A stretch of 64,000 nucleotides of DNA from Marsupella aquatica (Eukaryota > Plantae > Marchantiophyta), in the NCBI GenBank assembly GCA_973895155.1, contig OZ316893.1, forward strand, positions 16,770,645 through 16,834,644. Reading direction: 5' to 3'. The notes beneath the pieces were generated by a model, which was not told where the DNA came from, made no database searches, and saw only the letters and a list, made by a program, of their open reading frames with translations. Below, in pieces: positions 3,778-64,000 of this stretch (its first letter is position 1; each line of letters begins with the position of its first letter). Made by a program: the position numbers and the translations under genes.

Positions 3778-3786
3778 CTCCCCCTT
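3778..3786 (-). promoter_or_regulatory. Polypurine tract of the copia element
   Basis: AAGGGGGAG on the minus strand immediately before the 3' LTR. Confidence 0.85.
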
Positions 3787-16063: not shown

Positions 16064-16090
16064 TTTTCCTGCCGGTGAATAATTCCCGTC

Positions 16091-19766: not shown

Positions 19767-20300
19767 ATGAATCCACCAGTGACGTCCAAGGACCTCGACG
19801 TGACCAACAACTCAACAGAGGTTTCCCCGCCTCATAGCTCAAAGGAGGGGAATGCCCCAAGGAGGTCTTCCAAGATTTACACGCCTGCGGATGGGTTTGA
19901 CCGTAATTGCAATTCTGACGAAGAAGGATCTTTTTTAAGAGAGTGTACTCGATGTAAAAGGTTTTTCTTGTCAGAACTCGATGGAGATACCTGTGGCTTT
20001 CCTGATTGTAAGACACCTGGAGAATAAAAAATGGACGACTCAAATATTAGCCGTGGAGGAAATTCCGTGCCGCCTATCAAGGGGCAGGAGGCATCGGGTG
20101 CGAGGAAATCCGGAAAGATTCCCAAGGAGACTGTCAACAAAAGAAGCATGAAGGAAAACGTCAATGTCTACTATGGGAAGGGAAAGAAGCAGCGGCGGGC
20201 TCCGATAGACCATCGAGCTTGGGCAAAGGAAGCATTCCTTGACTGCCGCGAATCCACTCCGGACTCGGATGAGTGGATGCCATCTTCGTGGAACGATTAA
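19767..20300 (+). pseudogene. Small Zn-ribbon-like protein with one in-frame stop
   Basis: ECTRCKRFFLSELDGDTCGFPDC. ORFs 19767-20027 and 20031-20300 are in the same frame. Confidence 0.4.
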
Positions 20301-21309: not shown

Positions 21310-21930
21310 AGTTGTCGAAGTCAAAATCGCGGAAAACTCGCGGTAAGAAAAATCAGCGACACCAAATATTTTCTGGAGCCACATTCGCTCAACCAAATTG
21401 GTTGATATTTTTTGTGGAGGTAGAAGGGAAGTAGGTGCACCTTTTGGCAAATTATGAGCACCAACCGAGGTCTGGTTGGTGAGAGAAAAATTGGATGCCG
21501 GAGGGGGGTCTATAGCTTTCTAGCTTTTGGTACAAATCTGATTCCGCACCTTCAAGCAAACGAATGTTGTTGTAATCAATTGATTGGTGGGAAGATGGTG
21601 ATGGTGATTAGTTGTGAGTGGGAAGCACCTAAGGAAGAAGGTGGTAGGTTGGAAGGGAAGGTCAAAATGGAGTTAGAAGTTCCACTCGCAAGTCGCCGAA
21701 GTTGAAATTCGCGGAAACGAATGGTAGAAAAACTCAACAACACCAAATATTTTCTGGAGCCACATTCGCTCAACCAAATTGGCTGATATGTTTTGTGGAG
21801 GTAGAAGGGAAGTAGGCGCACCTTGTGGCAAATTATGAGCACCAACTGAGGTCTGGTTGGTGAGAGAAAAATCAGATGCCGGAGGGGGGTCTGTAGCTTC
21901 CAGTTTTTTTGTGCGAAATTTGATTCTATG
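21310..21930. repeat. Diverged ~230-bp direct duplication
   Basis: caccaaatattttctggagccacattcgctcaaccaaattgg...gatgccggaggggggtct occurs at ~21357-21510 and ~21740-21891. Confidence 0.8.
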
Positions 21931-32900: not shown

Positions 32901-35900
32901 GGGTCAAGGCTCTCCCCAACAACACACTACTATAAAATAATTGGCATCCATTTTTTCTCTACAAACATAGAGATGGCCACTTGTAAAAGTTAACAGATGG
33001 TGTCACTCAAAATATAGGCCAACGACAATGTGCTATCACACTCCCTTGTCTTACCAAGAGAAGTGCCCACCAATACTGCTGTTGGAGTTGCCAAGCCAAG
33101 GGCACAAGGGCAAGCAACGACCTGCAGAATTGACACACCCACGATACCTCAAAATACAAGAAACGAGCCTGGACACTTCTGCCCATTATGGCAGATACTT
33201 CCAGGTCGTCATGACAACTGTTCTGCCATACAACAGTTCAATAAACGTTGTCCACACCCTAACCCCACCATTTCTCACCCTATCAATAAGTCTACTACTA
33301 AAGAGTACACTGAAAGACTAGCTTATATTTCCTTCTTTGAATGTTCGAAAAGCAGATGGATTATTTCTCGGTTGAACGAGATATTACGACAAGTAAATGT
33401 TGGACTAAAAAAGTGTTCATCGTGCTTGTCATTGACAAGCCATAGCTCCAAGGTTCAAGCCGTGTGCCAATACCAAGCATGTGTCAGCTTGACATGTTTA
33501 AGGGACCCCAAAATATAAAAGCAAAAAGAAAACGTATGGTTGATTGATCAAGTGCAAAGGATGAGACGCTTAGCTCGTCTTGAACAGGAGAAAGGCAAGA
33601 CGTAACTCACAAGAACATCAATAGCGAGCTTGAGGCTTAACAGAAGTGCACTGCCATCAGGACCTGCGGCATCATTAAGAAGAACATCTGGCCAAAGATT
33701 GGTCCCAAGAAAGTACCTGGATCAATGGCAAGAAACGAGATGATCAAAGGGGAAGCAAGGTAGAATGAGAAGTACAGGGAACATAGGAGTAAGTTAGCGA
33801 CAGGTCAGAAACAAACCAAAAGGAGAATGTGGTTCCAGAAAGTGCGATGATGCAAAAAGCGAACGGGCCTGCAATAAGATCTGCTAGTCGTTGTACTGGC
33901 GCTTCCCGCCCTTGCGCTTCCTCTACCTGTTCACCAAACTCAATTCAGTAGCTATTTTCTCCGAATGATAAACAGGAACACCGGCTAGTTGGCCTACTGC
34001 CGCCTGGAGGATACCTCATTAGTTTCTTTGTCTAGGTGAGACAGCCTGCTAAGTCAAGCTAAACTATGAGACCATGCTGTAATAATGACGAGCCACTTTT
34101 GAAGATCAATTTCTGTAGAGCATAGTTAGGAATTTGGGTGCCGGGGAACCACTAACGAGGGCATTGACTTTGTCAGAGGACAATTTCTCAAACAGTTTCC
34201 CACGTAACCTTGCAGAATACAATGCATAACATCAAAATCTACTTGGCAGTAATTGAAAAGGGTCCTGTGCCGAAACAAGAACACACCAATTGGATAATAT
34301 TTGAGACGGTGGATAAAGCTCCTGAAGTAGTAGCTTCAACTCTTAAAGGCCCCTCCTGAGATAGTAAACACATCGGTTTTGAAACTTCTCAATGTTGGTT
34401 CCACAACTACCAGAAAGTGGCCGGGCCAGTTTATGACCACAACGAACACACACATATAGGACAGCATGAAGCGCCATGGTATAAAGTTACCACCAGTTTG
34501 TCTCTTCATATTCAAAGCAAAGTGAACACAATCAAACAAAACATTTTTGGTTCTGTGTCCAACAAGGTTCAAGCATTTACCCAGTTGATAGTTCCTGCTG
34601 ACACAAGAAGACCCTTGGCCTTCGGTACAGGAAGAGGTTCGCCAGTGAGCATGGACTCGTCCACAACGCTCCTTCCGGCAACAACCTCCCCCTGTGAAAT
34701 GTCACAGGCCCCGTTTAATGAATTGACCTCCTTGCCCTCAGGTTATTCAACTGTATGCCGATAAAGCACCTCTTGGAAGAAACACTTACATCAACCGGAA
34801 TAGTTTCACCAGGTAGGACTAGCAGACAATCGCCAAGCCTCACTTGTTCAGTTGGAACTCCAACAACCAACCCTTCAGTCACTCCCACTGCCTCATCTTT
34901 AGATACTTCACTTCTTCCAACTTCAGACACTACTAGTCGGGATGTGGAGGGCAACAATGACTGTTGACACAGTAACAGTGAACACAAAACATCAGTATAA
35001 TGCTCCACATTTCGGAACAAAGAAACTATCCCATTTTCAGTTGACAGAAGAATCAAAGAATATTATAAAAATAGAAGAACCAGACTATCTCAACTGCACG
35101 AAAATAAAATCATGTCCAACAAACATCTTACTAGAAGTTCTTGCATACTGCTAGAGGCTTCGGCACGAGCTTGTCGCTCCAATGCACGGCCCAGGAGCAC
35201 AAAAGCCAACAACATAACCTGTGAGAACAGAAAGGCTGTAGCCATCAGCAACTTGGAAATCAAAACCAAACACACTATATGAAGTTGCAAAGATCTTCTC
35301 ATGTCTACCTTCGTTCATTTTGCAGACACTGACATTGTACTCATTTACTTCAATAGTTCGGTTGAAAGAAAAAATGTAATAGCCCGATTGCTAAAAGTGT
35401 ACTAACTGTGATATGGCTGCCGTTAGTTCATTTTGCAGACACTGACATTGTACTGATTTACTTCAATAGTTCGGTTGAAAGGAAAAATGTAATAGCCCGA
35501 TTGCTAAAAGTGTACTAACTGTGATATGGCTGCCGTTACCGAACGTCTTGCATGAATTAACTTTAACAAGTCAAGATTTCCACCGTATAGTCTGGACTGG
35601 ATGCAGAGAGACAACTAATTGAAACTTGCAAATTGAAAGGTTGGATTCAGCACCGGTTCGTCAAAGAATGAAGCATCCCAGTTGAGAAATGGGAAGGCCA
35701 ATGAAACCTGACGAAAACAAGCATCTATTAAATTTAAATGTCATATTTCACAATACTAGCAAATTACTTCAAGTGGCCACTAACAGCAAGCATTCGGAAT
35801 TGGGGCAAAAGTGATATTTGCTTGAGAGTGGAGCAGCAAGCGTCAAAACTTACAGCACTGATGAGAAATGCTGCACATGCGCCAAAGCCAACAAGAGTGT

Positions 35901-37451
35901 TCATGTTGGGAGACCTTCGCAGAAAGGCCTTGAAACCATCCAGAAGAAGTTCTAAGTACCTCCAAAACATATCCCCCCATCAGTTCCAGAAACTACATGC
36001 TCTATGTTCAGGCTCTGCTTTAGATCGCCAAAGTAGTCTAGTAAGTATGAATAACAAAATCATCCTCCACAGTATGGTTTGGTCAACTTTGCTAGAGTAC
36101 ACTTTCCCATCTCACAATTTCAGCGGCACTCTGACGAAATGCGACATGCCCACAATTGCAGTCTAGGGTGCAATTATTATCACAACTAGATCAGCCATTG
36201 ACCAATGATCACAGAATTTGTTGAGAAAGAATAACAGAGCCAGGTGGGCAGACACAGAGCATACCTCTCGCTGGTCCCAGGAGTGTAAGAGAAGCAACGC
36301 TGGCCTTCCAGATTGGATTGTGCAGAATTCCAAAAGCATGGCCTGCAGATTCGGTCATCAAACCACGTAAAAAACTGAAAAACAATTCCCCCAAGTCGAG
36401 AGTAATTCGGTGATTTGAGTTATTTGTGTGCCTGACAGTAAGAGCACCGATATGCTTTATTCATTACAAGGAATTCTACACATCCAAGAAGAAGACAAAT
36501 AGAAACGGCAGAGAGTGGCGCAATCACTTCTCGCTTTCCCGGAGAGGAGAGGAGAGGAGAGGAGAGGAGAATTGCAGATTAAAGAATTTAAACAGGACTA
36601 TTGGTACTGAATGTACCTTCCATGAAGTCATGGACACCCAAAGAGTGCATGAAGTGAGTGGCATGGGTTCCACAACAAAGGGCAGCAAGAGCCCAAGCAA
36701 ACGTCACTTGCCCTCTGCTTCTTTTCATGAGATCCTTTCTCTTCCTAGCAAGCTCCTCTCGCTTTCTGCTAATGCTCCCCTCCGCGTTTCCTGGTAACCT
36801 GGGCCTCGAGGGAAATCCACAGACAGTAAGACGTGAAGCCAGCTCATCCCTAACTCTCCCTTTGTCCTCCGACGTCTTAAGGGAAATAGCTGCAGTTTCT
36901 GTCAGTATATTCACAGCAACTGAGTTCACCCTCTTGTCTGCTACTAGTAGATTACGAACCCTGGCTACACAAGCCCCGCACATCATCCCTTGTACATCTA
37001 GTACCACTGAATCAAAGCCCGGAACCTCATCTACAATGTTTCCCTGCAGCTCTGGCTCGACAAGACTCGCATCACTCAAAGCACAGAATTTCCTCGATTT
37101 TCTTGGTCCAACCCCAGCTCGATCACAGCTACCACCAATCTTCCATCCCAACCTCCTTGCAGAACCTTCGCACGTCAGAGACAAACAATGAACGACACCC
37201 CTAGAACCGTTAGCACCGCTTCGATGAAAGGCGAGATTGTCCACAAATGATAAGGTTCTTCCCTTGTTTAGTTTGTAACCCGAAACTTGCTTTCCACGAT
37301 GCAGACGACAAGCTGGTAGATGAAACCCTGAGAAAAATAAATTGCGCAAGCGTCTAACTCGGAAAGACTTCCAAGCCCTCTCATCCTCTAATCTAGAGCG
37401 AGATACACAGGAGAGGTGAGACGGCCACGAGCTGAGGGCTTGAAAAGACAT
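29945..37451 (-). CDS. HMA8: Chloroplast P1B-type copper-transporting ATPase, PAA2/HMA8-like, 17 exons
   Basis: Transit-peptide-like N-terminus, GMMCGAC, SPNMNTLVG, DASFFDEP, LPGETIPVD, TGEP, CPCALGLATP, FDK|TGTLT, SHPIA, GDGVNDAPALA, YN, MAASS. GT-AG exons approx.: 37451-36617, 36342-36265, 35951-35854, 35707-35654, 35218-35132, 34960-34790, 34691-34581, 34355-34288, 33926-33817, 33715-33611, 33121-33055, 32873-32794, 32586-32117, 31960-31786, 31654-31523, 30297-30147, 30036-29945. Confidence 0.93.
31155..31345. repeat. Intronic minisatellite, ~45-46 bp x4
   Basis: Unit approx. CACCACTATGATTGGGGGTGGAATTGAGACGGGTGTGATTCTGGG. Confidence 0.85.
35313..35538. repeat. Intronic 113-bp tandem duplication
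   Basis: gttcattttgcagacactgac...gatatggctgccgtta occurs twice, nearly identical. Confidence 0.9.
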
Positions 37452-38850
37452 GATGTCACCCTGTCCAAACCGTCATAGATGATAGATTATGTCCTCGATT
37501 TCACAAGGTGCAATGCAATATAAGTAATCCCCCGACTCATTCTGTGAATTTGACTACTTCTATTGACTACGTGGCCTTGAGCTGGGTTTCTGCTGTCGTG
37601 TCAAAGCCTGAAACACAAGCAACATTCAAGTGAGCAAGAATTCGCGGAGTTTGAAGAAAGAAATGGCATAGCGTCTATGCAAGGCAAATCATTCTGGCGA
37701 GTTGCCCAACCGGTGCATTATGAGAAGTCAAGTCTGACAGTTGTCATCTAAAGGCAAGGGAATCAATACCAGAGAAAGAGCCCAACGATGAGATAGAATG
37801 ACTATCCAGAGTATAAAAACTGTTTGAAGTCAACCACCCTATACAGAGTTGACAAAGCACGACTACAAGAAAGTTGAACTGGGTAAACCTCAAAAATTAA
37901 TTCCAGAGACTTAAGAGAGAAACGCAAACTCGTCTATACTACGAGCACAAAATGGAGTTTTCTTCCACAGCATTGAAGACGGAAAGTGAAAGCTGATAGA
38001 GAGAGAGTGAACATTACAAATTTAAGGATCACGTCGACTGCCAAGATTTGCATGCTGGACGAGGTTGAAGTAAAGCGCTTTCAGGTTGCTGCTGGGTTCA
38101 TCAATCACTTTCTGCAACATCGGACCTTGTGCTCTTTCGCTAGTTGCCGCAATAAGTCGATATAATATGTTAGAATGTGGGGACCGAGGCAATTTAGCAG
38201 GGTTGAGTTATAGCTAAGGCGACTACTAATGCGCCGCCTCCTAATGCTTTCGGAAACCCGCTGTCAATCGGGAATGTACATTCTTGATCACGGAATTATG
38301 TTCTCGACTCTGTTCGGACAGTGTAGAATTTTGAAATAACAATTGTTGTCAGGTCCTGTGGCATGTGAAGGGGAAGAAATCGTCCTGAGCAAACGTTTCT
38401 CCAAGAAGTGCCGCTACAATTTGGGAGAAACGCAGAGACAATCTAGGAGAAACGCCAGAGACGCAGTAGGCTAAAGAATATGAGTAACAGAATGTAGATC
38501 GAAATCTTCACTAGTGTATTGTGAAACAAAAGATCGAAATCAACCAGGTACGTCGCTATGGAGCTTTCTCACCTTGTATACTACGGTGACGGTAGTCGTG
38601 AGGAAGGGACTGATGCAGGAAAGGATACACTTATTCCAAACGACCTTCTTCTTATCCTTTCGTCCACCCATGGGCCCACAATGTCAGAAAGGGTTTGCTT
38701 TGGGTTTGCTTTCTGTTTTGGTTTGTCCTGGATAGAAAGATTCACCAAGTGGGAAACGGTGGAGTGATTTAAACCAGCTCTAGCCATATAGCATGCTCAT
38801 CCTGGAACATGCTTTACTTTTTGTCTTGTAGTGATATTAAGTGGACAAAA

Positions 38851-43518: not shown

Positions 43519-46500
43519 TGTGATGCCTAGCCAGGAATCACTAGGCCAATAAGATGGTAAACCCGGGTGGTATATACTAAATCACATTAGTATAAGGAGG
43601 AAAAACAGGAATTAAAATATAAACAATTAAGGGTAACCATGGAACCCGAGTTGAGGCCGGAAGTAAGGGTGCAGCGGCAACCAACGAGGCACAATTAGGG
43701 TTAAGGTATGCTAAGTACAGGCGGCTATGGGTAATCAACGGACAGTCAGGCAACGGCAGCTAGGAGGGGGGAAAGGATTGTTCACCAAGGATGGCAACTC
43801 ATTTGCAAACATTGATCAAGCAAGGGATTGTAACAACTGTCAACTGCTTAGACAAATATTGTGGGTGGAAGCAAATACAAGATGGGAATGAGCAATGTCA
43901 ACCAAGCCGCACATTTTTGGGGATGCCTGTTCGAACGGGCAACTAAGTACATTGGAACATACGAGGATGAGGAGTTGGAGAGAGCAGCCCAAGAACAACA
44001 GCAGATTGCTTGGCTGTGAAAACTCCATAAGTATGCCTTCCTCGGAGGAGAGCTCATCAAGGCTGAATTTTTGTGGACGCCTACTACCAACCAGCACGAC
44101 AACCTCTTATTTTGTAAGAGCATAATCGTTGGCATCCAGGAGGCCATCAACCATTGCAATGATGAACATTGGGACTTGAAGGGTTGTATGGAGGCGTGGA
44201 CAAAAGAAACAGTGTTGGGAAAATTGTCAAGAGCGGCCAAAATAAAGAGAAAGATGACCAACAACAAAGAAGCCACACCAGCCAAGAGAACAAGGTTGGC
44301 AACGTCTAGAAAGCTGGCCAAGCAGGGGAACTAGAGATAGGAGGAGGCCAAGGAACCAGAGGTTGACCCAATCAACGCCATCCCTACAAGGGATGATACA
44401 TGGAAGGGTTGGGCGACGGTCATACCGCAGGCAGTGCAATTATATTTTGCACGAGAAGAGGATGCATGTTTTACAGCCATGCAGTCTTGAAAGTACCAAG
44501 GCTTCATGGCCGGATTTGGCTTGGAGACCTTTGTTAGATTACCGTGGCTCAAGCCGGAGGTGTTGGATCATGGGATCACAAGGAAAATGTAACCAGGGTA
44601 TATGGGAGGGAATTCTATCTCATTCCCAAGGTGATTGCCAAAGTATTTGGCTTGCCGATAGGCAATAAGACCAAGGTAGACACCCGGAAGAACTTGTTGG
44701 ATAAGGAGTTTAGGTCATTTCCTAGGCCATCAATGAAGAATGGCTTCTACTAGAACACATGCACCAACCCGCACATTGGAGAAATGATTGATTTCTTGCG
44801 AATGACAATGCATTGCAATTTGGCAAGGCTGGAGATTGGCAAGGCACAAGTCTACCTGGCAGAGAGGCCAGACCCAAGCCAGGACTACAACGAGTACCTC
44901 CTCACCCAATTGAAGAAGATCTTGAAGGAGGAACAACAAGTGATAGGCCAGAGTCGCGGAACTCGACTACCTTAACACTTAGCTCCGGCATCGCTGACTC
45001 CGACGCTGAGCTCGCTTATGGTCCAGGCCCGGATAGGCCATCCGGGGTGGACTTAGCATAGGGAGACTTGTGGGCAATGAGACGTGGCACTAGCAAGGCA
45101 AGGAGCCAAGCTAGGGGCACACACTAAGGACTCGGACTAGCCGATGGCTGGTTGGGTCAAGGGGAAATGGGCCGGGCTCAAGGATGGCCATCCGGACCTC
45201 CAGATGGACTTTGAGTTCTGAGGACTTGGGAGTGAGCTCCTCTTGGGCCCAAGGCCAATGGAGTTGACACCATTGGCAACGGACGCTTGGGGTGCAAGTT
45301 GTGGCCCGATCCGAGTTGGGTCAGTCGGGGGCCCCAAGCGGCGATCAGACCTGAGGGCCTAGGCATGAGCGCACTGGGTCGGCCCGGTCACAACAGGCTA
45401 AGGCACTCTGCTTGCGGATGCCTATCAAGAAAGTTATGGGAGTTGCTAGTTGGTGGCGCGCCCATTATGCGCGATAGGATCCGGGTTGGGGGCCAAATGA
45501 TTAGGGACCAAAGTTGGTCCGGGGGTGGGAGGTCTCCAGAAGCATATATGAGGGGAGTGGTGTCTCCCTAGGGGCCAAGGGCGAGCCGAAGTCATGAGCC
45601 ACGGTGGTCGCGACACTATGGGAAACCGCCAAACAAAAATGGCGATATCTTCCCAACGAAAGTCCGTTGGAGGACTTCTTAGGTGCGTTGGAAATCTCTT
45701 GAGAAGGGCTATGCCCTCCTGAGCTCAACTGGGTCTGGGGGTGCCCTAGGTTCTTGTGGTTGGCGGGTGTTAGCTCGCCCGCTTGCCAAATCCTGCCGAA
45801 TAGCAACCAAGCCACGTTCGGTCTCCCAAGGGAGCTTGCATTGGGGAGGCAAGGCCAAGTAGGTGTGGAGGTTGAGTTCCAAGGGTGCTCGGCTCCTAGA
45901 CCACCAGTGGGGCAAACCAGGAGCGGTTGCTAGAGTCGGGGCCATTCTGGTCCCAACGTGTCAGGGCGGTCAGGGCGGTCAGTTGGTGATGGATAGATAC
46001 AAGGGGGAACCCAGGCCGCACCCAAGGAAGGAGCTGTTTTGGATGAACAGTGGGCGTGGGTTCTGGTTCCGGCTTATGGCATTGGGAGGACCTATCATTG
46101 ACCTATTTACCAACGTCTGTTGAGCTTGAGTTAGGATGCTAGACTTGTTGAGTTCTATATCTTGAAGGGTTACTTACCGAGGTGCTTGGTTGCTTGTGCA
46201 GATAGGGAGGACCGTTGAGTAGCAGTCGTGTTAGAGAGCAAGTGTGGCTTTGTATGGGAGGGGCTGCTGGCGGTGCAAGGGGCACTAGGTTGCTTGCTCG
46301 AGGTATTCCGTGGAGGCGTTCGGGCACCAAGGGCACTTAGGCGTGAGTGCTGGGATTGGTGAGGGCGCTGGGTGGTAAGGTCCACCACTGCCAGGGGAGT
46401 GTGTCCCGACTTGATTATCACATGCCACTATTGTGCCAATACGCCCGGAGTCAGACCTTTGCACTAGTACTTTCCCTACAGGCAAGGGCACCAAAAGAGG

Positions 46501-48182
46501 AGTTGGAGCAGAGGCCGGCAGCAAGGAAGCCCAAATCGCCTGACAACCCCACAATAGAGCAGATCTTTAGGCCGAGGCCGGAATCCACGCCAATGGAGCA
46601 ACCAGCCATGCAAGACCTTCTGCAAATTAGCAGAAGGAGAAGCCGGCAGCTGTAGCGTAGGTACCGGTATAGGGCATTGTTCAAGAGGCAAGCATAGGAA
46701 GGCCCACAAGAGTAGATCCCTTTGTCGCGGCCGCGCAGGGTAGGAGGCAAGAAGACAAGCCTGAAGTGTGGATGTACGTGGGAGCCTCAAGTCTGGAACC
46801 TGAGGGACAAGGGCCCAAGGTTCCGAGTCACAATGGGGAGAGGCAAAGGCGGGCGTGGGAGCAGGAGCAAAGGCCAACACCCATGCGCAGCTTTCAGCAG
46901 GAGGCCTCGTTCACAGCTAGTTCTCAAGATGACCCGGAGGAACCGGTACTCCAAGCCGGCAGGGAGGGCATGGAGGACTACAATGATGAGGACTTTGGCT
47001 ACGGGTTGGATTGTCCTATACCAGGGGTGAGGACTTGTGGCCGGTTCATCCCCACATTGCCGAGAGTGGTTTGTGAGGACCCAAGACAACAGAGAAGCCC
47101 GAAGTCTCCCCCACCAGACGTCCCTCCTCCAAATTACGATGGGATGAAACAGGCCGCATAGGAGTTGCAAGAGCGACTCAAAGATCTGGTGGAGGCAACC
47201 CTAGCCAAGGAGAAGGATTTACTAGGGGGAGGATGACCATAAGACATTTGGCAGCTTGCCAAAGAACAAGCCGCCCCCTACCCACGTTTGACGAGGTTTG
47301 AAAGGTGGTGTGGGAACAAAGGCCGCGTTGGGAGATGTCGGTCTCTCCTAACCACTCCACATATGCACGTTGCAAAGCCCTGGAGTACGGGAAGATGTGC
47401 TGATTACTTGCCCTTGGCATCTTTGGGGCAGAGATGGAGACGGGGCCCTTTATCCAAAGGGAGATGTTGGATAAAATCTGGTACGTTGGAAGAAGCAGTG
47501 GCCTTGGAGAGGATGAAGAAGGAAGAGGTCATTCGGTGGCTTAGAGAGAAGGAAGCCAAGTTTGGAGATCTAAAGGCAACCAAGTAGGCTCAAGATGAGC
47601 TATGGGTTAGGAAGCATGAGCTTAGCATTGTGCAGGGGCAACTGGATACATCCAAGGCTGATAACAAGTTATTCAAGAGTAAACTTGCCCAGACCCAAGG
47701 GCAATTGGCCGAGGTGCTCAAGGAGAAGGAGAAGTGGAAGCGAGAGCTAAAAGATGTAGAGTCAACTCACATAATGATTTGCAACACGGCCATGGTGGAG
47801 GCACAGAGGAAGGAGAGGGCACTGAAGGGGGAGCTCAAAGATCTCTGCAAAGCCTTTCAACAAAAGAATGCTGAATTGGATAGGACCTACAGGGGTGTTG
47901 ATCAGCTGAAGGAGGATCTCACAACCCTGTCGGCCAACTTTCAAGCTGACCTGCATAGGAAGGACAACATGCTCGATCAAACCTATGAGAAGATGAACAA
48001 GATGCAGTTTGATGTCATCCACGAGCTCAATGCGGAGCTGAGAGCAACCCAGGAGGAGAGGGCAGCCTTACGGAAGACGTTGGACAAAAATGAGAAGGAG
48101 TTGGAGGATGCTCACGGGGATTTGGACAAGACCCAAGAGGAGTTGGAGGACACCATGCGGAAGATGGAGAACTTGCAGCGGC
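43519..48182. mobile_element. Second, older copy of the protein-coding LTR-like unit, truncated on the right
   Basis: Starts TGTGATGCCTAG like 5745. Colinear homology with 5745-8935 (LFCK.S..VGI.EAI, MIDFLR.TMHCNL, RATQEERA) with many stops. Confidence 0.88.
44952..46389 (+). mobile_element. 1,438-bp solo LTR with AG..CT termini
   Basis: AGTCGCGGA...TCCACCACT with 5-bp TSD GCCAG (44947-44951, 46390-46394). The host frame VIGQ|GSVSR is restored on removal. The 3' end matches the LTR next to the PBS at 26674. Confidence 0.88.
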
Positions 48183-53005: not shown

Positions 53006-53995
53006 CTAAGCCTTCTCCCCCTCCCACAACGGAAGGGGAAGCCTAAATACTACGGTTGCCACCTGCTGAGCTACCTGTAGGAATTGGTTATTGAGGTCAG
53101 TCAGGCTGGTAACCCGAGCCAAGGATTCCGAGCGCAACTGAAGCACGGTGTCGTCCAGCTTCTTGAGATCCGCTTGCGCCTCGCTCAACTCTTGGGTTAG
53201 TCCATCCCGCTGTTCGATGGTGCGGACTAACTCCTCACGGCGGGTAGTGGCCTCCTCCTTGAGGTGTTCTACCAGCATTTGGAGGCGCCCGATCTCGTTC
53301 CCCTTCGCCATGAGTTCTTCCTCCAAGTGGCTTACGATCCGTGGTTGGTGCTCTAACATGAAGAAGGCTGGTTGAAAGTACGTCGAGACTTGTTGTCCGA
53401 TGTACGTTGCCAGCTCCCCTAACAGAGTCTGACTAAACTTCTGGACCAGGTCGTAGGCCATGGTCCCTGGGGCTACTTGGTAGTCCTCCATCCTCTCGGG
53501 TACCGGCGGTTCCTCAAGCGGGGCGGCAAGCTCCTCCGTAGTCTACAATGCGGAGGGGAAGGTTTCTTCAGGTGGTGGAGGGATTGGAGGTGGTTGAACC
53601 GGGGGTAGCGGAGGCTCGACGGGAGGGGGCGGCGGAATTTCAACCCGGGGAGGTGACGGAGTATTAATCAGGGCCTCTGGCTCAGGGTTTTCCCGAGGTG
53701 CGGTAGTCCGCTCGCTCGGGGTAGCCTCCTCCATAGCGGGGGTGATATTAGTCGGGGCTGAGGTGGCCATATTCTTTCCCCTGGCCTCCTGCCGTGCCTT
53801 GTACCAGGTGAGGATGATGGCAATATGACTTCCCAGGTAATTCTTCCCCCCGATAGCCATACCTCCCTGAGCCCGCTTAAGCTCCCCCGAGAACCTCCGA
53901 TAAAAGAATTGGGCCCAGTTTTGCCGTTTGTACTGTTCCACCTGTACGATCGTGCAGAGGGAGATCTTGGATCGTGGCTCAATCATGAGGTACAC
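53006..53995 (-). pseudogene. Retrotransposon accessory ORF remnant (PMD/Athila-ORF1-like C-terminal part, Pro-rich linker, coiled coil)
   Basis: NWAQFFYRRFSGEL..YLGSHIAIIL parallels DYNGYLLNQLKKIL..RLGYHMPLL of the 5860-9506 protein. Followed by poly-Pro and a coiled coil. Confidence 0.5.
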
Positions 53996-54424
53996 AACTT
54001 CATCAGTTATCAGTGACTTTCATCAGTCACTGATATCAGTCTGTGCCCAAAACTCGGCGACGCCGCCGACATGGACTTAATTCATACCCACAGTCAAACC
54101 CTATGTCGGCGTCCACTCCGACATTGTTTTGGTTCGGACAATTAGTAATGTCGGCTGCCTCTCTGACCATCTTGGTGCCCTTTCTAACCATCTTGGCGCC
54201 CTCTCTGAGATATCCTTGGAGTGTTGTTCCATCTCGGCTGAGCTCGCCGAGATGAAAACATACCCAGCAACGTGTACAACATAGCATATCAAATAGGAGC
54301 CACATTAAGAACGTTTGGATGACACACTTTTTATTAAGCTTTGTACCGAACTTTACAACGATGTTGTCTATCTCAATTTTCTGAACTAAATTCCACTAGG
54401 CTGCGTCTCCATCTTCCATCCTCT

Positions 54425-55606
54425 CTACAGGGTAATTGTCTGGCAGACAAGGTCCACAACAATCTTTTGCCGCATGATGTCTATAAGTGCAGGGTCAAAG
54501 TTCAGTACGCCGCCTCCAGAAATACGCTCCATGTAGATAATGATATATACACCACAATTGTAATCATCCCCTTGACCTGGAATGTTATCTCGGTAAATGC
54601 GTGGCCATTCTAATGGACATAACAAGGTACGACCCCGCAAGATGGAGAGGTCCGAAAGAAACTGAGCTACTTTGAACACTTCTGTGCCATCCTGTGCTTC
54701 GGGCACAAGCGGATCAAGTAAATGCAGTTGCCGCAAGGCAGTATCAACCACAACTAGTACCCAGTGTTTTGGCCGGTAGACGGGGATTAAAACGTACTCG
54801 TGCTCCCACATTTGAATGCCCCGCCAATATGCCAACGCTGCGTTGAAGTTATATTCCGGAGTTGTCATCACTTGGTAAAAATGTGTTGGCAATAACATGG
54901 CCTTGGGTTTATGAAGGGTTTGTGCTCTTCGTTCCAGTAAAGCAATGTAAGCATTGATGACATCGCAAGTGATCCATTTTTTTGGCCTCAAGCATTTTAA
55001 ATGTGCCCTCGTCAAGTGCACGTCCTCGATTGTCACTATGACCTCTTTTTGGTCCGCCTTGGGGTCCAATGCCTTCTTCACTATCGCCAAAAATTTGGAT
55101 GGTTGCTGTTGTGCGGGCACTCCTTTGTTTGCAAGCCCCACCTCTTTCACTCCTGCCCGGGGAGTCAGCCCCTCATTCACTGGTTGCTCAGGTCTCTCCT
55201 GAGCTGCAATGAAGGTAAATTCATTCAAACATTACTCTTTGGAACTGGAGCTTGATAATCTTATACTTACATGGTGAGTTTGGAGATTGTCACTTCCTAC
55301 CGAGCTACTCTCATCCGATTGAGCTTCTTTTGCCCTATCATCGACAAATTTGAGAGTTTTCCTTTTTCTCTCTTTTACACAGCGAGGCACTATTTCTTCA
55401 TGATAGGTATCAGCAGCGTAGCACGGAAGGGTTAACTTCACCGGCGAGAAATATGCCAAAGCTTCCTCCAACGCGAGCTTGACAAGCCGTCTGTCCTGGC
55501 TGTCCCATTCCGCTGTAGCTGACTCGGTAGTCCTGTCGGGAACTGCTACTAAGTTATACTTAAATCCAATCAAATAATGTATTGCGCCCAAAATAGACGT
55601 AAACAA
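54425..55606 (-). CDS. Ulp1/SENP-family (peptidase C48) SUMO protease, TE-associated; N-terminal extension separated by one in-frame stop
   Basis: CLRPKKWITCDVINAY, LPTHFY, IPVYRPKHWVLVVVD, LLDPL, PGQGDDYNCGVY. The His-Asp-Cys triad and oxyanion Gln are present. Confidence 0.88.
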
Positions 55607-55648
55607 GAAGGCATCTGTCGGGGAAGGTAGTCGACATGGATCGACGGA

Positions 55649-56445
55649 TCTCGGAGAGGCCAGCCGAGATCACTCTTCCTGAGACGGATCTCGGAGAGGC
55701 CGGCCGAGATTGACTATTCCTGAGACAAATCTTGGAGACGCCAACCGAGATGACTTCTTGAGACGGATCTCGGAGAGGCTAGCCGAGATGACTGTTCCTG
55801 AGACGGATCTCAAAGAGGCCAGCCGAGATTGACTCATCCTGAGACGGATCTCGGAGAGGCCAGCCGAGATGACTATTCGGTACATGGATCTCAGAGAGGC
55901 CAGCCGAGATTGACTCTTCCTGAGATGGATCTTGGATAGGCCAGCCAAAATTGACTCTTCCTAAGACAGATCTCGGAGAGGCCAGCCGAGATGACTATTC
56001 CTGAGACGGATCTCAGAGAGGCCAGTCGAGATTGACTCTTCCTGAGACAGATCTTGGATAGGCCAGCCAAGATCACTCTTCCTGAGACGGATCTCGGAGA
56101 GGCCAGCCGAGATGACTATTCCTGAGACGGATCTCAGAGAGGCCAGCCGAGATTGACTCTTCCTGAGATGGATCTTGGATAGGCCAGCCAAGATCACTCT
56201 TCCTGAGACGGATCTTGGAGAGGCCAGCCGAGATGACTATTCCTGAGACGGATCTCAGAGAGGCCAACCGAGATTAACTCTTCCTGAGACGGATCTCAGA
56301 GAGGCCAGCCGAGATGACTATTCCTGAGACGGATCTCAGAAAGGCCAGCCGAGATTGACTCTTCCTGAGACGGATCTTGGATAGGCCAGCCAAGATCACT
56401 CTTCCTGAGACGGATCTTGGAGAGGCCCGCCAAGATGACTCTTCT
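55649..56445. repeat. Tandem array of ~20 units of 40/41 bp, each holding a 21-bp quasi-palindrome
   Basis: TCTCGGAGAGGCCAGCCGAGA plus (T)TGACT(A/C)TTCCTGAGACGGA, with three alternating variants. Confidence 0.95.
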
Positions 56446-56648
56446 TGAGTTGCATGTAGAGGAATGAATCTTGGCGAGGTCCGCCAACATGCATCTCAAG
56501 TTAGGACTTGCCCTCGCTTGTAGAGGAGGCTAGACACTATGAATGTCAGCGAGGTCAGCCGACATGCATACATATCAGCGAGGCCGCTGACTTGTATCCC
56601 TCTATTGTCAACCATTGCGATGAGCAAGCAAATATGAAATGAACAACG

Positions 56649-59600
56649 TCAAACGCCAGAAAACTTACATGTTGTTAGAAGTACTACCGGCTTTTTCTTC
56701 TTGCGCTTTTCTGGATTGGCTTTTGAACGGACCACCTCTTCCTCCTCCGGGGAGATCACTCCAACCAGTTGTGCCAGTTGGTCTTGCGCACAAGTTCCGA
56801 AGTGAGGATAGGATTCAGTCCCAAACACCATCCGCCCACAATTTTCACCCGCCTTGAATATTGCCCCAAACTGTGCGTTGAAAGTGAGGATAGTTGCCCC
56901 AGGGTGTGTTGTATATTCAATGATACATTGGAGCGTTGCTGGCGACAATGTGCCCGCAAAAGGATCGTTAACCTGATTCTTCTTGGATGTATAGTTCGTT
57001 AGCCCATTCCTACTCTTCATATCGAGCTCTGCACTAATTGGTGCCACATCGTCCTTTGGGCATATCTCCACAGCAGATTGAAACCCCCACAGGTCTAGCT
57101 TGAGATATTCGCTCTGGATTGGCCAAACATATTCAGAGGTCAGACTTCCTCAGTTTAGGATAGTAAGTCATTGGAATAAAAAATAAATGAAGAAGTAGGT
57201 AATTGATGGGACTTACTCGCTTCCCAGTCCTACCATTGTAGGTGGGTGTGTCGTTCCAGATAAAGAAGCTTTCTTTCAACCCCCAGTTGGTATTCTCGTA
57301 AACTAATGCATCATAAATGCAAGTTGAGTGCCGAAGCGAACCACTGTGCACGATGGCAAACAGTCCTTCGGAATCAAGGACATCTCGAGCAAACTCCTGA
57401 ACCCGGTTCAAGTCGTCCTCCCGGAACGAATTCCACAACGGGGTGGACTTAACCTCGACCATACGCGTGTCTGTTCCCATATGTATCAGAATTAAATCTG
57501 CACCAGTCTTCACTCGCTTCCCCCCTTTTCTCCAGGCATTTTGACGCAAACCTTCCCGCAATAGCTTTCTGCACCATGAGATCAATTTACTAACTACAGG
57601 GGGTTTGGTACCTTCTTTAGCCGCATCAAAAAAAGTTGTAAATAGATTTGGAGACCACCTAAAATACATATGTCTGCTCTGGGAAGACATGGTATTGGCA
57701 TAAGGACGCCTTACTCCTTCCAGCTCTGTATTATCCTCTTCTCCAAGGGCCTCTTCATCCTCCTCATTTTCCAATGTGGGGTCAGGTTGGATGGTTGTGG
57801 GCGGAACCTCTCCAGTGCCGGGCAGGGGAGGCGACTCAGTGGGGGAAGGAAGAGGAGGAAATTCCTCGTCACGTGCTTTGCTTGGGCTCCCTTTGGGAGC
57901 TCTGGGTCGCCTAGTTTGCTTTCTTTTTAAGGCCTTTTCCTTTTGCCGTGACAGTAATGGTGGCCGGTAAGGCACAGGAGAGATATCAGACAAGCGCCCT
58001 TCGTCTCCGGATTGTCCTTTGTCCTCTTCCTCTCGCTCCTCTTCCTCTCGCTCACCCACATCATCCTCACCTTGCTGCTCATCAGCCAATTCATCTTGTA
58101 CTTCAGGAGCCTCATGCGGAGGCAAGTCAAATTCTTGCAGTGGAGCCTCGTCTGGACCCAACTCAACTATTGGTTGTTTATCCTTGTGCCCTGGACCCTG
58201 CGAAACCCCTGGACCGTCCTCAACTGCTGCCTTTGTAGCCGGCTCTACACCCTTGCTCTTGATAGAACCAGGTTCCGTTTGGATCTCTGCATGACCTGCA
58301 TAGGATGCAAATTGATGAGCTTCATGATGGCAACTGCATCTCGGCGAGCCTCACCAAGATTGGGTTCATTATATGCAAGCAACTTATTACTCAACTAATA
58401 CTTCATCTCGGCGAGCCTCGCCGACATCTGGACTGGACCAGACACTTAATCTCGGAGAGCCACGCCGATATCTGGACTGGACCAGACACTTAATCTCGGA
58501 GAGCCTTGCCGACATCTAGACTGGACCGGACACTTAATCTCGGCGAGCCTCGCCAACCCAGCCAAGGTTTTTTCCAATGCAAGCCACCACCTGATTCGAA
58601 AGGAATTGAGTAATACCTGATGGGGTCTTTGTTGGAGTGCTTATAGAATCTGACTGACTGGCCTCGGCGGATTGTTCCTTGTCGACCTTCTTCTCGCCTC
58701 CTTCCTTTCGGGCCTTTTTCCCATCATAGGCTGGGTCCATTGGGATTATGGCCTCCAACGCTATTGCCTGGGGCATAGAGTCCGTCAATTGTCGCAGCTT
58801 GGATATATCGTAGTAATTTGTAGGCTCCTGTTGGTCCTTCAGCTTCATTGCACACTCCTTCTCAGTGTCATCGATAAAAGTATTCCAGTCACGGTATTCC
58901 ATATACCGTGGGCAGTTTTGACGTTCCCAATCGCAGACTACTCTGCCATTAGGAATTTGGCCATCACATGGATACATGCTAAGGCTCCCTTTCGGCTCCA
59001 TCCAAGATGTGAGTGCCCATGGCAGCTCTTTCAATACGGATGCATTCATGTTCTCCTGATTGATTAGAAATCTTGTCACGCACCTCGTTGTTTGCTTTTT
59101 CCACAATTCTTTTAACAGGACCGTGGCCTTTCCGTCAATCCAAATTTCCCCGCCTAGTTTTAGTGATTTCTCTTGCACATAAGCTCGATAAAGCCTTTTG
59201 TATAGCTCTGCAAATTCCTCCTCTGTCCCGGAAAACTCACGGTACATCTGTCTTTGGTAGGCCTTTGCAGCAAAATCGGTCAAAATCACACAACCAACGT
59301 GGTCAATGTAACACCACATTGACCAGACTGCTAACCAGGATCTAATTGCAGCATCACCATTGCTACGTGGATGGTGATACATACTCTTCTCCTCCTCCGT
59401 TCCAAAATGAGCTTTCAATAGCTTTACTCTGCACTCTGCAGTTACCCAAGCCCCAGCAAACAAGCGGACCCTGTCCAAGCCAACCTGTACATTCATCACA
59501 CCCTGCTTGGCGTCCTTTGACAACTTGTGATACAGCTGCCGACATACCGGCATGAACTGGTCTCCATTGGCCGGATTCACGCAGGCCGCAAGCTTGGGGA

Positions 59601-60775
59601 ACTTGTTGTCCCAGGCCTTGCATGCAACAATAATCATTGCCTCCGTCTCCTCCTCAGTTCTCTTCACACTCCACGGGTGCCCATGAGCTGCGTCTTGTGC
59701 CATCTCCTTGGAGATAATGATTCGTCCCGCTTCAATGTTTGACCAAGACATGATGTACACAACGGCTTCTTTTGTCATATTCTTTGAGTACCAAGTCTTC
59801 CCATGTCCTCGATTTCGGGCCTTCATGAAAGCCTCCATTGTCTCCTTTGACATGAGCGAACTGTACTCCTCCAATGGAGTGTTCAATAGCTTTGCAACCC
59901 GATCAGCGTCATTAAACCAGGACGTCTTCACGACAGTCGCACTTATCCTGAAAATGACAAACAGTACTCATAGTGGCAATTTCAGAGAGGCTCTCCAAGA
60001 TGGCACACAAGGTTTACACAAACGGGTAATCACATTTTGCAAAAAGATGCGAATGAGAGTACTTACGAGTTGAGAGCGTGCATTGCTTGCTCAACCTTCT
60101 TGAATCCGTCCTTCCCAGCGTTCAAAAGAGAGAATCTGATGCACGGATGGTATTGCAATTGATCCGAATACTCAAAAGCAACTGCGGACCAGGCTATGTA
60201 TCTGTGGTTTCCATCAAAAACCCAAAACATCTTGTCCTTAAGGACTTTGAACTCCTCTGATGCATCGCACTCTTGCTCAAACTGTTCATTGAGCTGAGTC
60301 CATAGAGGGTCCCAAAATGGCTTGAAGTCTGTCATTGTCTGCGTTTCTCCAATTTCATTGAACTCAGTAATGTGGAACTCGCTGAGCTTCACAACATAGC
60401 CGCTCTCTTTGAATCCTTTTTTAATTTTGCAACCGACTCATCCTGAAGATTCCTCACTGCCTCCATTGGCATGAGCCGGCACAAGGGGATCCGGGGCGGA
60501 TCCTTACTAAACTTTGTCTCATACTTGGAGACGATAGACTCCCAGGCTCCCTTCTCAGCAATATCAGCCAATTCCACCGCTCCAATAGGCTCAAATGATA
60601 TCTGCTTTGGCTCAAACTTCCTCCTGGAGTCGACTGACTCCATAAGTGGACCACCCTGTGAGCGCGTCAGTCGAGACGTGACTGGCGAAGGAGACTTGGA
60701 TTGTGGTTTCTTACTCCGCTGAGAAGTTTGGCTGTCGGCAGGTCCAGCTCCAGTCGAGTCTTTCCTCTTCGGCAT
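56649..60775 (-). CDS. Multi-exon gene: ParB/Srx-like N-terminal domain, helical middle, acidic/Pro linker, degenerate beta-class N4C/N6A DNA methyltransferase-like C-terminal domain (possibly pseudogenised)
   Basis: RIPLCRL..VRNLQDESVAKLK(K)GFKESGY..WVFDGNHRYIAW..MHALN, with a frameshift in the A-run at ~60416-60422. GT-AG introns near 60066-59949 and 58586-58296. ADLILI..FARDVLDSEGLFAI..FFIWN..IIEYTTHPGATILTFNAQFGAIFKAGENCGRMVFGTE. Confidence 0.7.
58406..58558. repeat. Intronic 44-bp tandem repeat (3.5 units) built on the 21-bp palindrome
   Basis: Palindrome starts at 58406, 58450, 58494 and 58538 (TCTCGGCGAGCCTCGCCGACA plus TCTGGACTGGACCAGACACTTAA). Confidence 0.9.
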
Positions 60776-61792
60776 TTTGACCTTAGATTACATGAGAAAT
60801 GAAAGAGTTATTACTCGGCAATAGCTCGACCTATAAACCTGACAAGATCTCAGTGAGCCCCGCCGAGAGAGCCAGTTTTCAAGGATACGCGGGGTCCAGC
60901 CTCTCACACATTTGATTCATCTACAAATGGATTTGACATATCAAGAAAAAGGGGGAGCCAAGAGAAAAACCTGAGAGAATCACCAACGTTCACGGCAAAT
61001 CATTGTCGCAAATGCTCACAAAAACATGTTGCCTAAACGCTCACGGAGAAGCTACCACACACTCACTGCCTCAAAACACCAACGCAATCTAGTAGACACG
61101 ATAACAGGGTTGCACAGGAGAGTTTACCGTGAGTGGGACGACTGAAGAAGAGCAGGAACAACGCGGATGTGAGCGCGGAGAAGTGAGAGATTGCACAGAC
61201 CAATATGCAAAGATTGAGGAAGAGCACGGATTAGAGCGCGAACGAGTAAGGGACGCAAAAGAGTGAGGCAGAGTGAGAAGGTCCGGGGATTAGTGATAAA
61301 GATGAGCGCCAAACCTAAGGTGTCACACCGTGGAAGAGTGACGAGGAAGGAACGACATCCACTTCAAGGAATAACGTACCGCACGTACTGCACAACACTA
61401 CAATACGCAATAGATACGGAAGATCCTAACTATACTTCGATACGTACATGTTAACGGCCCAAACAAGAAAGTACACAATGGTAACGCGAGTACTGACCAC
61501 CACTAGTACGAGAGAGTTTAGGGTACATTTAGGGTACAATTAGGGACTTCGGCCTACAACTCAAATGAGTCCGAATGTAGGAGACCCTCGCCGTCATTTC
61601 ATTCCGAGGCCTACTGAGACGTGTCAACATCTCGGTGCGTCAGCTAAAAGAGGAAATGGTTGCCCACATGCATTATCATTTGGGTGGCTTAACTAAAAGA
61701 GGAAATTGGGGTTAAGAGAAGGGGTAAGAGCACAAGTCAACAAGATCAAGGAGGGTTTGTTGGAGGAGACTTAATAAAGGCGGCCAATGATG

Positions 61793-61820
61793 TTTAGGGT
61801 TTAGGGTTTAGGGTTTAGGG
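61793..61820 (+). repeat. Interstitial plant-type telomeric repeat (TTTAGGG)4
   Basis: Four exact TTTAGGG units. Confidence 0.85.
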
Positions 61821-61885
61821 TAAAATATGAGAAGTAGAAAAAATTCCAACACTCTAGCGAACTTCACGGTAGAAAAGTAAGCTTC

Positions 61886-62512
61886 TTGGGTCAAAAAGGT
61901 CGCCAGCCTCTCGGAGACCCTCTCTGAGATGGAGTCGTGGGCGTACTTTGGCCAGATGACACCACTTGTGGACCCTGTTAACAGTTTCAAAGGGTTAGCT
62001 ACAACATACACTGTGTCTCTCAGAGACCCTCTCCGAGATGAAATTAAGGGTATTCCGTTTCAAAGGAAGGACCCAAATTGGTTCTATCCAACATCCGATG
62101 TCAGAGACCCTCTCTGAGACGGAGTGGTGTGGCCCGAACGGCCAGACGGCAAAAATTGTCAATTGCGTCTTGGGTGGAAAGGGAAGCGAGATTGCAACCC
62201 AATCGCTCGGAGACCCTCTCTGAGATGGAGCCGTGTGCCCCAAGTGGCCAGAGAGCAGTTCTCCCAGATCGCATATTGGGTCAGAAAGGTCGCCAAATGA
62301 GACCCAGCCTCTCGGAGACCCTCTCTGAGATGGAGTCATGGGCGTACTTTGGCCAGATGACACCACTTGTGGACCCTGTTAACAGTTTCAAAGGGTTAGC
62401 TACAACATACACTGTGTCTCTCAGAGACCCTCTCCGAGATGAAATTAAGGGTATTCCGTTTCAAAGGAAGGACCCAAATTGGTTCTATCCCACATTCGAT
62501 GTCAGAGACCCT
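61886..62512. repeat. ~225-bp direct duplication (offset ~400 bp) rich in TCTC(G/A)GAGACCCTCTC(T/C)GAGA palindromes
   Basis: 61886-62112 and 62276-62512 are nearly identical. Confidence 0.9.
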
Positions 62513-62721
62513 CGCCAAAATACAAGGATGAACCCAAAAGTGCATGCAAAAACTGACCGTATAGTACTTTTCAATGTTTTTACAATGTAATTATGTATGG
62601 ATCGCGTGTCCGTACAAATCTACTATCTCAGAGAGGCTCGCCGAGTACAAAATACTGTTGCCCAAATGACCCGAGTCCATCTCAGAGACCCCCACCGAGA
62701 ATAATTTAGGGTGGAAACTAA

Positions 62722-63571
62722 ATGTCAGAGACCCTCGTCGAGTAGGATTCTAGGTAAAAGTCTATGAGAATCCATCTCAGAATCTTGGAGACCCCCGCCG
62801 AGAATGACTTAGGATGAAAAGTAAATGACACTCAGCGACCAAGGAAGTCCCTAATCCACCACAGAGAGGCTTGCCAGATAGCGCGACCGCATGTCAGAGA
62901 CCCTCGCCGAGTAGGATTCTAGATAAAAGTCTATGAGAATCCATCTCAGAATCTCGGAGACCCCCGCCGAGAATGACTTGGGATGAAAAGTAAATGACAC
63001 TCAGTGACCAAGGAAGTCCCTAATCCACCACAGAGAGGCTCGCCAGATAGCGCGACCGCATGTCAGAGACCCTCGTCGAGTAGGATTCTAGATAAAAGTC
63101 TATGAGAATCCATCTCAGAATCTCGGAGACCCCCGCCGAGAATGACTTGGGATGAAAAGTAAATGACACTCAGCGACCAAGGAAGTCCCTAATCCACCAC
63201 AGAGAGGCTCGCCAGATAGCGCGACCGCATGTCAGAGACCCTCGCCGAGTAGGATTCTAGATAAAAGTCTATGAGAATCCATCTCAGAATCTCGGAGACC
63301 CCCGCCGAGAATGACTTGGGATGAAAAGTAAATGACACTCAGCGACCAAGGAAGTCCCTAATCCACCACAGAGAGGCTCGCCAGATAGCGCGACCGCATG
63401 TCAGAGACCCTCGCCGAGTAGGATTCTAGATAAAAGTCTATGAGAATCCATCTTAGAATCTCGGAGACCCCCACGAAGAATGACTTGGGATGACCAAGGA
63501 AGTCCCTAATCCACCATAGAGAGGCTCACCAGATAGCGCGACCGCATGTCAGAGACCCTCGCCGAGTAGGA
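62722..63571. repeat. 169-bp tandem array, 5 units (last with a 21-bp deletion) plus a partial unit
   Basis: ATGTCAGAGACCCTCG starts at 62722, 62891, 63060, 63229, 63398 and 63546. Confidence 0.95.
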
Positions 63572-63707
63572 AGTCGGAAGGCTATTTATTCATCCTTCAA
63601 GTCAGGCATTTTTGCAGAGGGGATTATAAGCCACACGACGGAAGAAGAAATGTTTTAGGCAAGGCCGGACGGAATCTTGGAGAATATACTACATCCCCAG
63701 AGTTTGC

Positions 63708-63990
63708 ATGTACCTTCTTGGCGGCTGCTGGCAAATATGTACCTTGTACATGTGCAGAATCTGTACCTTCTTGGCGGCCGCTAGCAAATAGGTACCTTCT
63801 TTGTGGTACAGTTGTTATATGTACGCTCCAGATTCTACGATCGTTATATGGTACGCACGTTGTTCGGAATGGTATTCTTGGCGTAAAGTACGGGTACTTT
63901 AACGTCTGATGTACCGCCCAAGTTCTAAGCCTGAAAGTGCGGTATTATTGGCATAAAGTGGTACCAAGACTTTAACGTCTGATGTATAAA
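63708..63990. repeat. Short degenerate repeats of a different family, probably the edge of another element
   Basis: tgtaccttcttggcggc x2, actttaacgtctgatgta x2, ggtatt.ttggc.taaagt x2. Confidence 0.5.
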
Positions 63991-64000
63991 GCCGAAGGCC

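Follow-up and report, generated by a model that had tools for sequence, protein, structure and literature searches.

The stretch of DNA analysed here (the window) covers 64,000 nucleotides of the liverwort Marsupella aquatica, contig OZ316893.1 of assembly GCA_973895155.1, positions 16,770,645 to 16,834,644 of the forward strand, and is repeat-rich plant DNA with Copia, Gypsy and LINE pieces, a DUF7869 transposase and a presumed heavy-metal ATPase host gene. Its right-hand end is occupied by the left part of what is likely a cut-and-paste DNA transposon, in which a family of 21-bp palindromes accompanies a predicted gene with a ParB-like part, a methylase-like part and a Ulp1-type SUMO protease (Table 1). 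A preliminary description of the same DNA had proposed that these components form one system, in which an element-encoded dimer recognises the palindromes after the logic of bacterial parS sites and acts on chromatin.

Searching the window with the palindrome pattern of that description at up to three mismatches returned 17 matches (mean of 100 shuffles, 0.00), none of them perfect and the best carrying one mismatch. A position weight matrix trained on 16 of the sites gave 52 sites at a threshold of at least 8 bits (mean of 30 shuffles, 2.07) and 51 at the stricter threshold of at least 12 bits (shuffle mean, 0.2), the working consensus being a 9-3-9 palindrome whose CG positions are frequently decayed. 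All 52 sites lie within 54232-63567 and none in the remaining 54 kb, which bears out the earlier statement that the family recurs across a stretch of about 9.5 kb. The single sites noticed before were recovered at 54232, 56469, 58339, 60848, 62626 and 62680, at most one base from their former coordinates, and further single sites were found at 55616, 56544, 59980 and 61576. The three arrays with periods of 40/41, 44 and 169 bp were likewise recovered, the last with two strong sites per unit that stand 60 and 109 bp apart, and the duplication that had been put at 225 bp is present as well, with copies of 210 bp that are spaced 401 apart.

It can be seen from the distribution of the sites that none falls in a coding exon: introns 1, 2 and 4 hold 29 of the 52, another 22 precede the ATG, and one is found downstream of the stop codon. 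Three of the five introns of the predicted gene are thus occupied, including intron 1, which spans just 119 bp. The sequences on either side of 16 independent sites have an identity of only 0.29 over 120 pairs, against 0.74 within the sites (a value that is high by construction), and the sites are therefore not fragments of one longer repeat; the observation that spacers differ while the palindrome is kept holds. The selection on the sites that had been read from it is not visible inside the 40-bp array, where departures from the consensus are as frequent in the sites (33 of 420 letters) as in the spacers (23 of 304). CpG transitions make up 19 of those 33 site changes, as expected of methylated DNA, and suggest that the sites of this copy are methylated and decaying. 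Diverged copies in public sequencing runs combine the palindrome with still other spacers.

The ParB-like, methylase-like and protease pieces are all present as previously described, and a single spliced gene fits them rather than a separate, linked Ulp1 gene. The predicted gene occupies the minus strand with six exons and five GT-AG introns and encodes 1,560 amino acids without an internal stop when one frameshift is read as X. This frameshift of 1 bp falls within a homopolymer near 60416 and breaks the gene in the window copy, and in related contigs of the public runs the reading frame at that point is intact in 345 of 345 units of depth in run X1, in 418 of 580 in X2 and in 0 of 1001 in X4. 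The gene model matches family member P0083 with an E-value of 1e-71 over residues 74-695, and its blastp alignment with P0106 extends to residue 1297. Named relatives of the protein are from liverworts, Riccia sorocarpa accounting for 8 of 10 representatives and 23 of 23 hits and Calypogeia fissa for 2 of 10 in another set. The acceptor of intron 4, at 55615, coincides with the end of a palindrome, and the palindromes may supply splice sites.

Sequence profiles barely detect the ParB part (best PHROG ParB profile, E 0.32); a Pfam scan of the ParB-side exons matched no family, and sequence searches against solved structures gave no significant match. The predicted structure of the Riccia homologue P0027 has a mean pLDDT (predicted local distance difference test score) of 72, mostly 80-95 over the ParB/Srx N-terminal fold, and Foldseek ranked ParB, Noc and KorB first for it. 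In a structure search over 48,161 chains the top four were KorB, PadC, pNOB8 ParB and sulfiredoxin, of the ParB/Srx family. Against Caulobacter ParB lacking its C-terminal domain (7bm8_A), 179 of 180 residues were aligned with Z 8.0 and a root-mean-square deviation (rmsd) of 4.8, an alignment that takes in the CTPase domain as well as the one for DNA binding, and SopB could be aligned through its DNA-binding domain to P0027 residues 271-454 (Z 4.8, rmsd 2.7, 92 aligned). Sequence identity in these structural matches is 10-19%. Since the top structural ranks agree, a ParB fold with a CTPase domain and a helix-turn-helix (HTH) domain is likely for the modelled protein, despite the middling Z scores. 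The arginine of Box II is retained in 24 of the 26 motifs found among 114 family sequences, the window copy reading GNHR. The ParB-like protein of the preliminary description is in this way upheld as to its predicted fold, its HTH-type second domain and its Box II GxxR motif, the action on chromatin that had been ascribed to it being putative.

No ParA ATPase was found among the open reading frames (ORFs) scanned in 53.0-62.6 kb of an element that extends beyond the window. A metagenome scan of 94 candidate stretches yielded one locus (1,053 bp, without context or site), and viral scans yielded no locus from 79 stretches and no exact motif match. In the atlas comparison the ParB part (P0083 residues 150-520, homologous to window 58617-60775) adjoins fungal DUF3723 with scores of 0.95-0.97. 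DUF3723 is a conserved passenger gene of Starship elements and may be the fungal counterpart of ParB-like accessory proteins, a likeness that we offer as a lead only.

The methylase-like part follows the permuted motif order, catalytic before S-adenosylmethionine (SAM)-binding, of the beta-class N4C/N6A methyltransferases (PF01555), and likeness to this type was returned with E-values down to 1e-5 (below the cut-off), with an atlas score of 0.95 and with an E-value of 2e-7 in another profile comparison. The catalytic (D/N/S)PP(Y/F/W) motif is held by none of the 114 family sequences, 16 motif-IV stretches reading DLPT, DMPT, DMPS, DLPS, DMPI, SVGT or HMGT. The SAM-binding FxGxG is lost too, the window copy reading FNAQFG and ten other motif-I stretches showing only a partial D(F/L)xxxWG. 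Because the catalytic motif is absent from all 114 sequences and the SAM-binding glycines are lost in the window copy, the domain is likely to be a pseudo-enzyme in the family as a whole. DIRS elements are known to carry methylase domains that are inactive (PMC4738411, cited here, like the other publications below, from the part accessible to us). The structure model of the methylase-like part was poor (pLDDT 40.5, top matches CcrM and M1.HpyAVI at E 0.04-0.1) and was not relied on. A link to Marchantia DN4MT1 was considered and rejected, as the TSPPY motif of that protein is intact and its description makes no mention of ParB, and the chlorophyte ParB-HTH Dam family was rejected as a relative since it belongs to a different methylase group.

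The Ulp1 protease is intact, as had been claimed: PF02902 matches with an E-value of 3.2e-14 and 53.7 bits against a curated cut-off of 20.7, and the His-Asp-Cys triad is present together with the oxyanion Gln. The first methionine of its ORF is residue 112, inside a domain that starts at residue 85, and a consensus splice donor lies 72 bases upstream. With no methionine ahead of the domain, a stand-alone gene was rejected, and for this reason and because of the upstream donor the protease is likely the last exon of the ParB-methylase gene. A search for longer proteins containing this Ulp1, itself a weak one, found none among 556 candidates. Fusions of Ulp1 with DUF7869 were seen in 2 of 45 matches (P0141 and P0157, one from Branchiostoma), with Ulp1 annotated ahead of the DUF7869 transposase.

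The preliminary description had seen no termini of the element in the window, and its left terminus was found here at 53987/53988. Contigs of the public runs track the Gypsy flank to 53987 and then diverge from the window (13 in X1, 14 in X2), so that the element is taken to be inserted at this point, and summed contig depth drops from thousands to hundreds at the junction bin. The large element proposed earlier proved to be multi-copy by contig depth: contigs nearly identical to it have depths of 170-218 in X1 and 333-412 in X2, against 24-27 and 52-61 for the host-gene control. Young copies number roughly 6-9, with more diverged relatives in addition, a rough estimate as contig depth is no copy number; run X1 may come from the very sample that gave the window. 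Five of the 37 window copies of ATCAGT, a motif chosen by eye after inspection of the sequence, lie inside the first 55 bases of the element and form the densest 75-bp cluster of the window, with no other copy in 53987-64000. Up to the window edge at 64000 neither a transposase nor a right end was seen, and the two ORFs in 63572-64000 had no NCBIfam match. Clusters of the motif GTACC occur in this element at 63600-64000 (11 copies) and in a second element further left at 3000-3640 (5 copies), where the cluster sits just 5' of a transposase once a nested insertion is removed; they hint that the transposase of the right-hand element begins shortly past 64000.

Table 1. Features of the palindrome-bearing element and its predicted gene, in window coordinates.
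Feature	Position	Strand	Description
Left junction	53987..53988		Inside Gypsy accessory ORF; element starts GAGGT, or AGGT if the G is the target's
ATCAGT subterminal cluster	54002..54040		Five motifs in both orientations, not the 21-bp palindrome; candidate repeats for transposase binding
Single palindrome	54232..54252		3' of the stop codon
Exon 6 (predicted)	54425..55198	-	Ulp1/C48 SUMO protease; His, Asp, Gln and Cys present
Exon 5	55271..55614	-	Tail, homologous to the C-terminal end of ParB-methylase proteins from Riccia
Intron 4	55615..56668	-	1,054 bp, GT-AG; 23 sites including the 40/41-bp array
40/41-bp array	55643-56449		20.0 units
Exon 4	56669..57113	-	Second half of beta-class methylase-like domain; SAM motif I degenerate (TFNAQFG); PF01555 E 0.084
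Exon 3	57217..58295	-	Acidic proline-rich linker, then first methylase-like half; motif IV degenerate (LIHMGT)
Intron 2	58296..58616	-	321 bp; 5 sites including the 44-bp array
44-bp array	58400-58554		3.5 units
Exon 2	58617..59947	-	Helical region with predicted ParB-type DNA-binding domain, then family-specific helical domain (from the model of homologue P0027)
Intron 1	59948..60066	-	119 bp; one site at 59980
Exon 1	60067..60775	-	ATG, ParB/Srx N-terminal domain, Box II (GNHR); frameshift near 60416
Leader/promoter region	60848..61596		Two single sites, 60848 and 61576
Telomere-like (GTTTAGG)	61792..61821	+	4.3 units, in the element's promoter region
210-bp duplication	61903..62513	+	Spacing 401, 98.6% identical; 7 sites within the stretch
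Singles and 169-bp array	62626..63571	+	Two singles; 4.6 units; 13 sites in all
169-bp array	62722-63493		4.6 units
Continuation of the element beyond the window edge	63572..64000		Depth unchanged to 64000; one X4 contig crosses the end

The second DNA transposon occupies 1904-3595 and 16079-23518, interrupted at about 3641-16063 by a nest of Copia, LINE and Gypsy sequences, and carries the broken DUF7869 transposase at 16079-19503 (+). It holds 11 sites, at up to four mismatches, of a sister 9-3-9 palindrome (shuffle mean, 0.08), whose outer and inner letters are those of the main palindrome and which differs from it by three letters per arm. These sister sites flank the transposase ORF on both sides and lie just within it. 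ParB-family profiles had no match in the visible part of this element, which runs off the window leftward. Its ends were not found in the window, position 1893 having been rejected as a left end because a spliced frame stays open across it. The leftward gene of the element, at 1693-2349 (-), is small, spliced and coiled-coil-like, with 106 codons to the first stop, and both of its 3' splice AGs sit at palindrome ends. Elsewhere in the window, the region 31500-37500 (-) holds a single-copy host gene with a plastid-type N-terminus, which we take from its translated motifs to be a heavy-metal P-type ATPase and which served as the depth control. Two related long accessory ORFs, 5806-9506 and 43879-47774, are associated with Gypsy elements and share 73-83% DNA identity; the first of them had no Pfam match.

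Taken as a whole, these features are read here, with a probability of roughly 0.45, as the left part of a multi-copy plant DNA transposon with a passenger protein of ParB-like, pseudo-methylase and Ulp1 parts, the 52 palindromes serving as the protein's own landing sites and removal of SUMO easing the silencing of the element. A dimer of the ParB-like protein would bind each palindrome, the period of 40-44 bp separating neighbouring sites by about four turns of the helix, a spacing like that of F-plasmid parS, and the protein may close on cytidine triphosphate (CTP) and then spread along the element. The pseudo-methylase could act as a nucleic-acid-binding or protein-contact module and Ulp1 could strip SUMO from nearby silencing factors, while a transposase to the right of 64000, of Sola/DUF7869 or KDZ/Zisupton type, would act on the terminal ATCAGT repeats. 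Such a role for the palindromes is favoured because they occur in three introns and 2-6 kb away from the end, a distance at which a transposase seldom needs sites, and because a different motif, ATCAGT, is packed at the end itself. A KDZ/Zisupton type is about as likely as a DUF7869 type for the missing transposase, since one end of KDZ-1 of Ectocarpus (KDZ-1_Ec32) reads GAGGT inward, as does the element here, a weak match of five bases, and since ParB genes occur on red-algal Zisupton elements. Fish Zisupton carries a SUMO protease.

Several observations weigh against this interpretation. The neighbouring DUF7869 element has its 11 sister sites with no ParB gene in its visible part; the Foldseek E-values are weak (best, 0.024) and Z scores of 7-8 are middling; the sites of the 40-bp array are no better conserved than its spacers; and the gene of this copy is frameshifted. 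As to the fused protease, the final splice (55270 to 55199) requires the second of two AGs five bases apart, a scan of 30 family proteins detected no Ulp1 domain, and the Riccia proteins terminate after the equivalent of exon 5.

The palindromes may instead be binding sites of the element's own transposase, with the ParB-like gene as unrelated cargo, an account that we consider less likely, though a real rival. It is encouraged by the neighbouring element, where the sister palindrome stands around the DUF7869 transposase with no ParB match in view, and by an incomplete sample from R. sorocarpa, in which all 25 DUF7869 genes lie at least 30 locus tags from the 42 sampled ParB-family genes, never within 29 tags, so that such elements would often be without the cargo. 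These two observations keep binding by a transposase alive and weaken the case for a DUF7869 type as the missing transposase. Most of the sites, however, are intronic or in the promoter, at a distance from the end; a single strong site falls within 300 bp of the left end, where ATCAGT motifs form a separate cluster; and red-algal arrays go with a ParB gene. As the neighbouring element is cut by the window edge, a ParB gene belonging to it could be situated beyond that edge, or could act in trans. That the sites are bound by nothing, being a hairpin-prone motif that slippage and local duplication have multiplied and that is tolerated only in non-coding DNA, is very unlikely; the equal divergence of site and spacer and the heavy CpG decay would be expected of such a by-product, and arrays could not survive in exons regardless, but the motif stands in at least 16 contexts with unrelated flanks and ends at the edge of the element, the second element has its own variant, and the pairing with other spacers in diverged copies is hard to square with it.

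Two further proposals share with the preferred one the binding of the palindromes by the ParB-like protein and part from it in what follows. In one, the protein would be a structural or regulatory cofactor, bridging the two ends during transposition or repressing its own promoter and that of the transposase in the manner of KorB, rather than an anti-silencing factor, and this we judge unlikely. KorB is the top match of the wide structure search, 22 of the 52 sites stand upstream of the ATG in a presumed divergent promoter, the degenerate methylase leaves no DNA mark to be expected, and ParB is known to condense and bridge parS-bearing DNA (bioRxiv 10.1101/2021.01.24.427996); yet an intact SUMO protease in the same frame points to host chromatin proteins, and intronic arrays fit the pattern of the VANC anti-silencing proteins of Arabidopsis. 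In the other and bolder one, likewise improbable, a CTP-dependent ParB sliding clamp loaded at the parS-like arrays would spread the SUMO protease over the whole element and lift its silencing. If true, this would bring a ParB/parS spreading system to light in eukaryotes for the first time and add an independent second strategy of the VANC kind, each transposon family would hold its own palindrome variant, and spreading like that of bacterial ParB would explain how a short motif protects kilobases and offer a possible targeted chromatin tool. The element suits clean testing, as its defined 21-bp site recurs 52 times, its protein has a predicted CTPase and DNA-binding fold that can be recognised, its effector enzyme is intact, the sister motif of the neighbouring element could serve as a specificity control, and the liverworts include a tractable model.

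Among known systems, the giant DNA transposon Sola1-1_Ec32 of the brown alga Ectocarpus carries, opposite its transposase, an accessory gene with ParB-like and N4/N6 methylase parts that is proposed to bind and modify its own element (PMC12477816). The likeness lies in the fusion of a ParB-like domain to a methylase fold inside a DNA transposon. In distinction from the element described here, its protein has 1,104 amino acids, the accessible portion of that paper mentions no Ulp1 and the word "palindrome" is missing from its main text, and its termini read AACCG-CGGTT rather than GAGGT (PMC12477816). In the element of the window the methylase motifs are lost and no transposase was seen. In red algae, including Bostrychia, the Plavaka accessory gene PAG3 is ParB-like and lies beside tandem inverted-repeat arrays, for which self-binding was hypothesised, and ParB genes move among Plavaka, Mutator, Zisupton and Fanzor elements (bioRxiv 10.1101/2025.02.11.637652). 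Arrays of this kind adjoin a ParB gene in both cases, and Plavaka is an unrelated superfamily, in which the effector of PAG3 is a 2-oxoglutarate oxygenase and the methylase a separate gene with a SET domain, as against a pseudo-methylase, Ulp1 and many intronic sites here (bioRxiv 10.1101/2025.02.11.637652). The idea of a self-binding accessory protein, put forward in the preliminary description, is plausible; as a concept it has already been published for red and brown algal transposons.

With the VANDAL elements of Arabidopsis and their VANC proteins the element shares the amplification of a family-specific motif in non-coding parts (52 of 52 sites here), with variants in related families, the VANC motifs forming tandem repeats in introns and in intergenic and terminal non-coding parts of their own element (PMC5735166). 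Those motifs have 8-9 bases, are non-palindromic and are of proven function (PMC5735166), in contrast to a 21-bp palindrome with a predicted role, and no VANC-type Pfam match was found in the proteins of the element or family that were scanned, which have a predicted ParB-type fold instead. According to the preprint on Bostrychia, self-binding with an effect on an element's own chromatin is known from VANDAL elements alone (bioRxiv 10.1101/2025.02.11.637652); for the ParB accessory proteins of algal transposons such an action has been proposed. In the F plasmid, sopC consists of twelve 16-bp sites with 27-bp spacers and hence a period of 43 bp (bioRxiv 10.1101/2021.01.24.427996), to which the period of 40-44 bp found here, together with the predicted CTPase fold, Box II and HTH domain, bears comparison. 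The system departs from bacterial ParB/parS in that no ParA was seen and no partition role is evident, and in its eukaryotic introns, its long helical insertion and its fused effectors. A literature search, with limited coverage of subscription journals, returned the Ectocarpus and Bostrychia papers as the only relevant ones and found no land-plant version, dead methylase or Ulp1 fusion. What appears to be new in comparison with these systems is a land-plant version with a pseudo-methylase, a SUMO protease that is likely fused to it, and intronic arrays spaced like F-plasmid parS.

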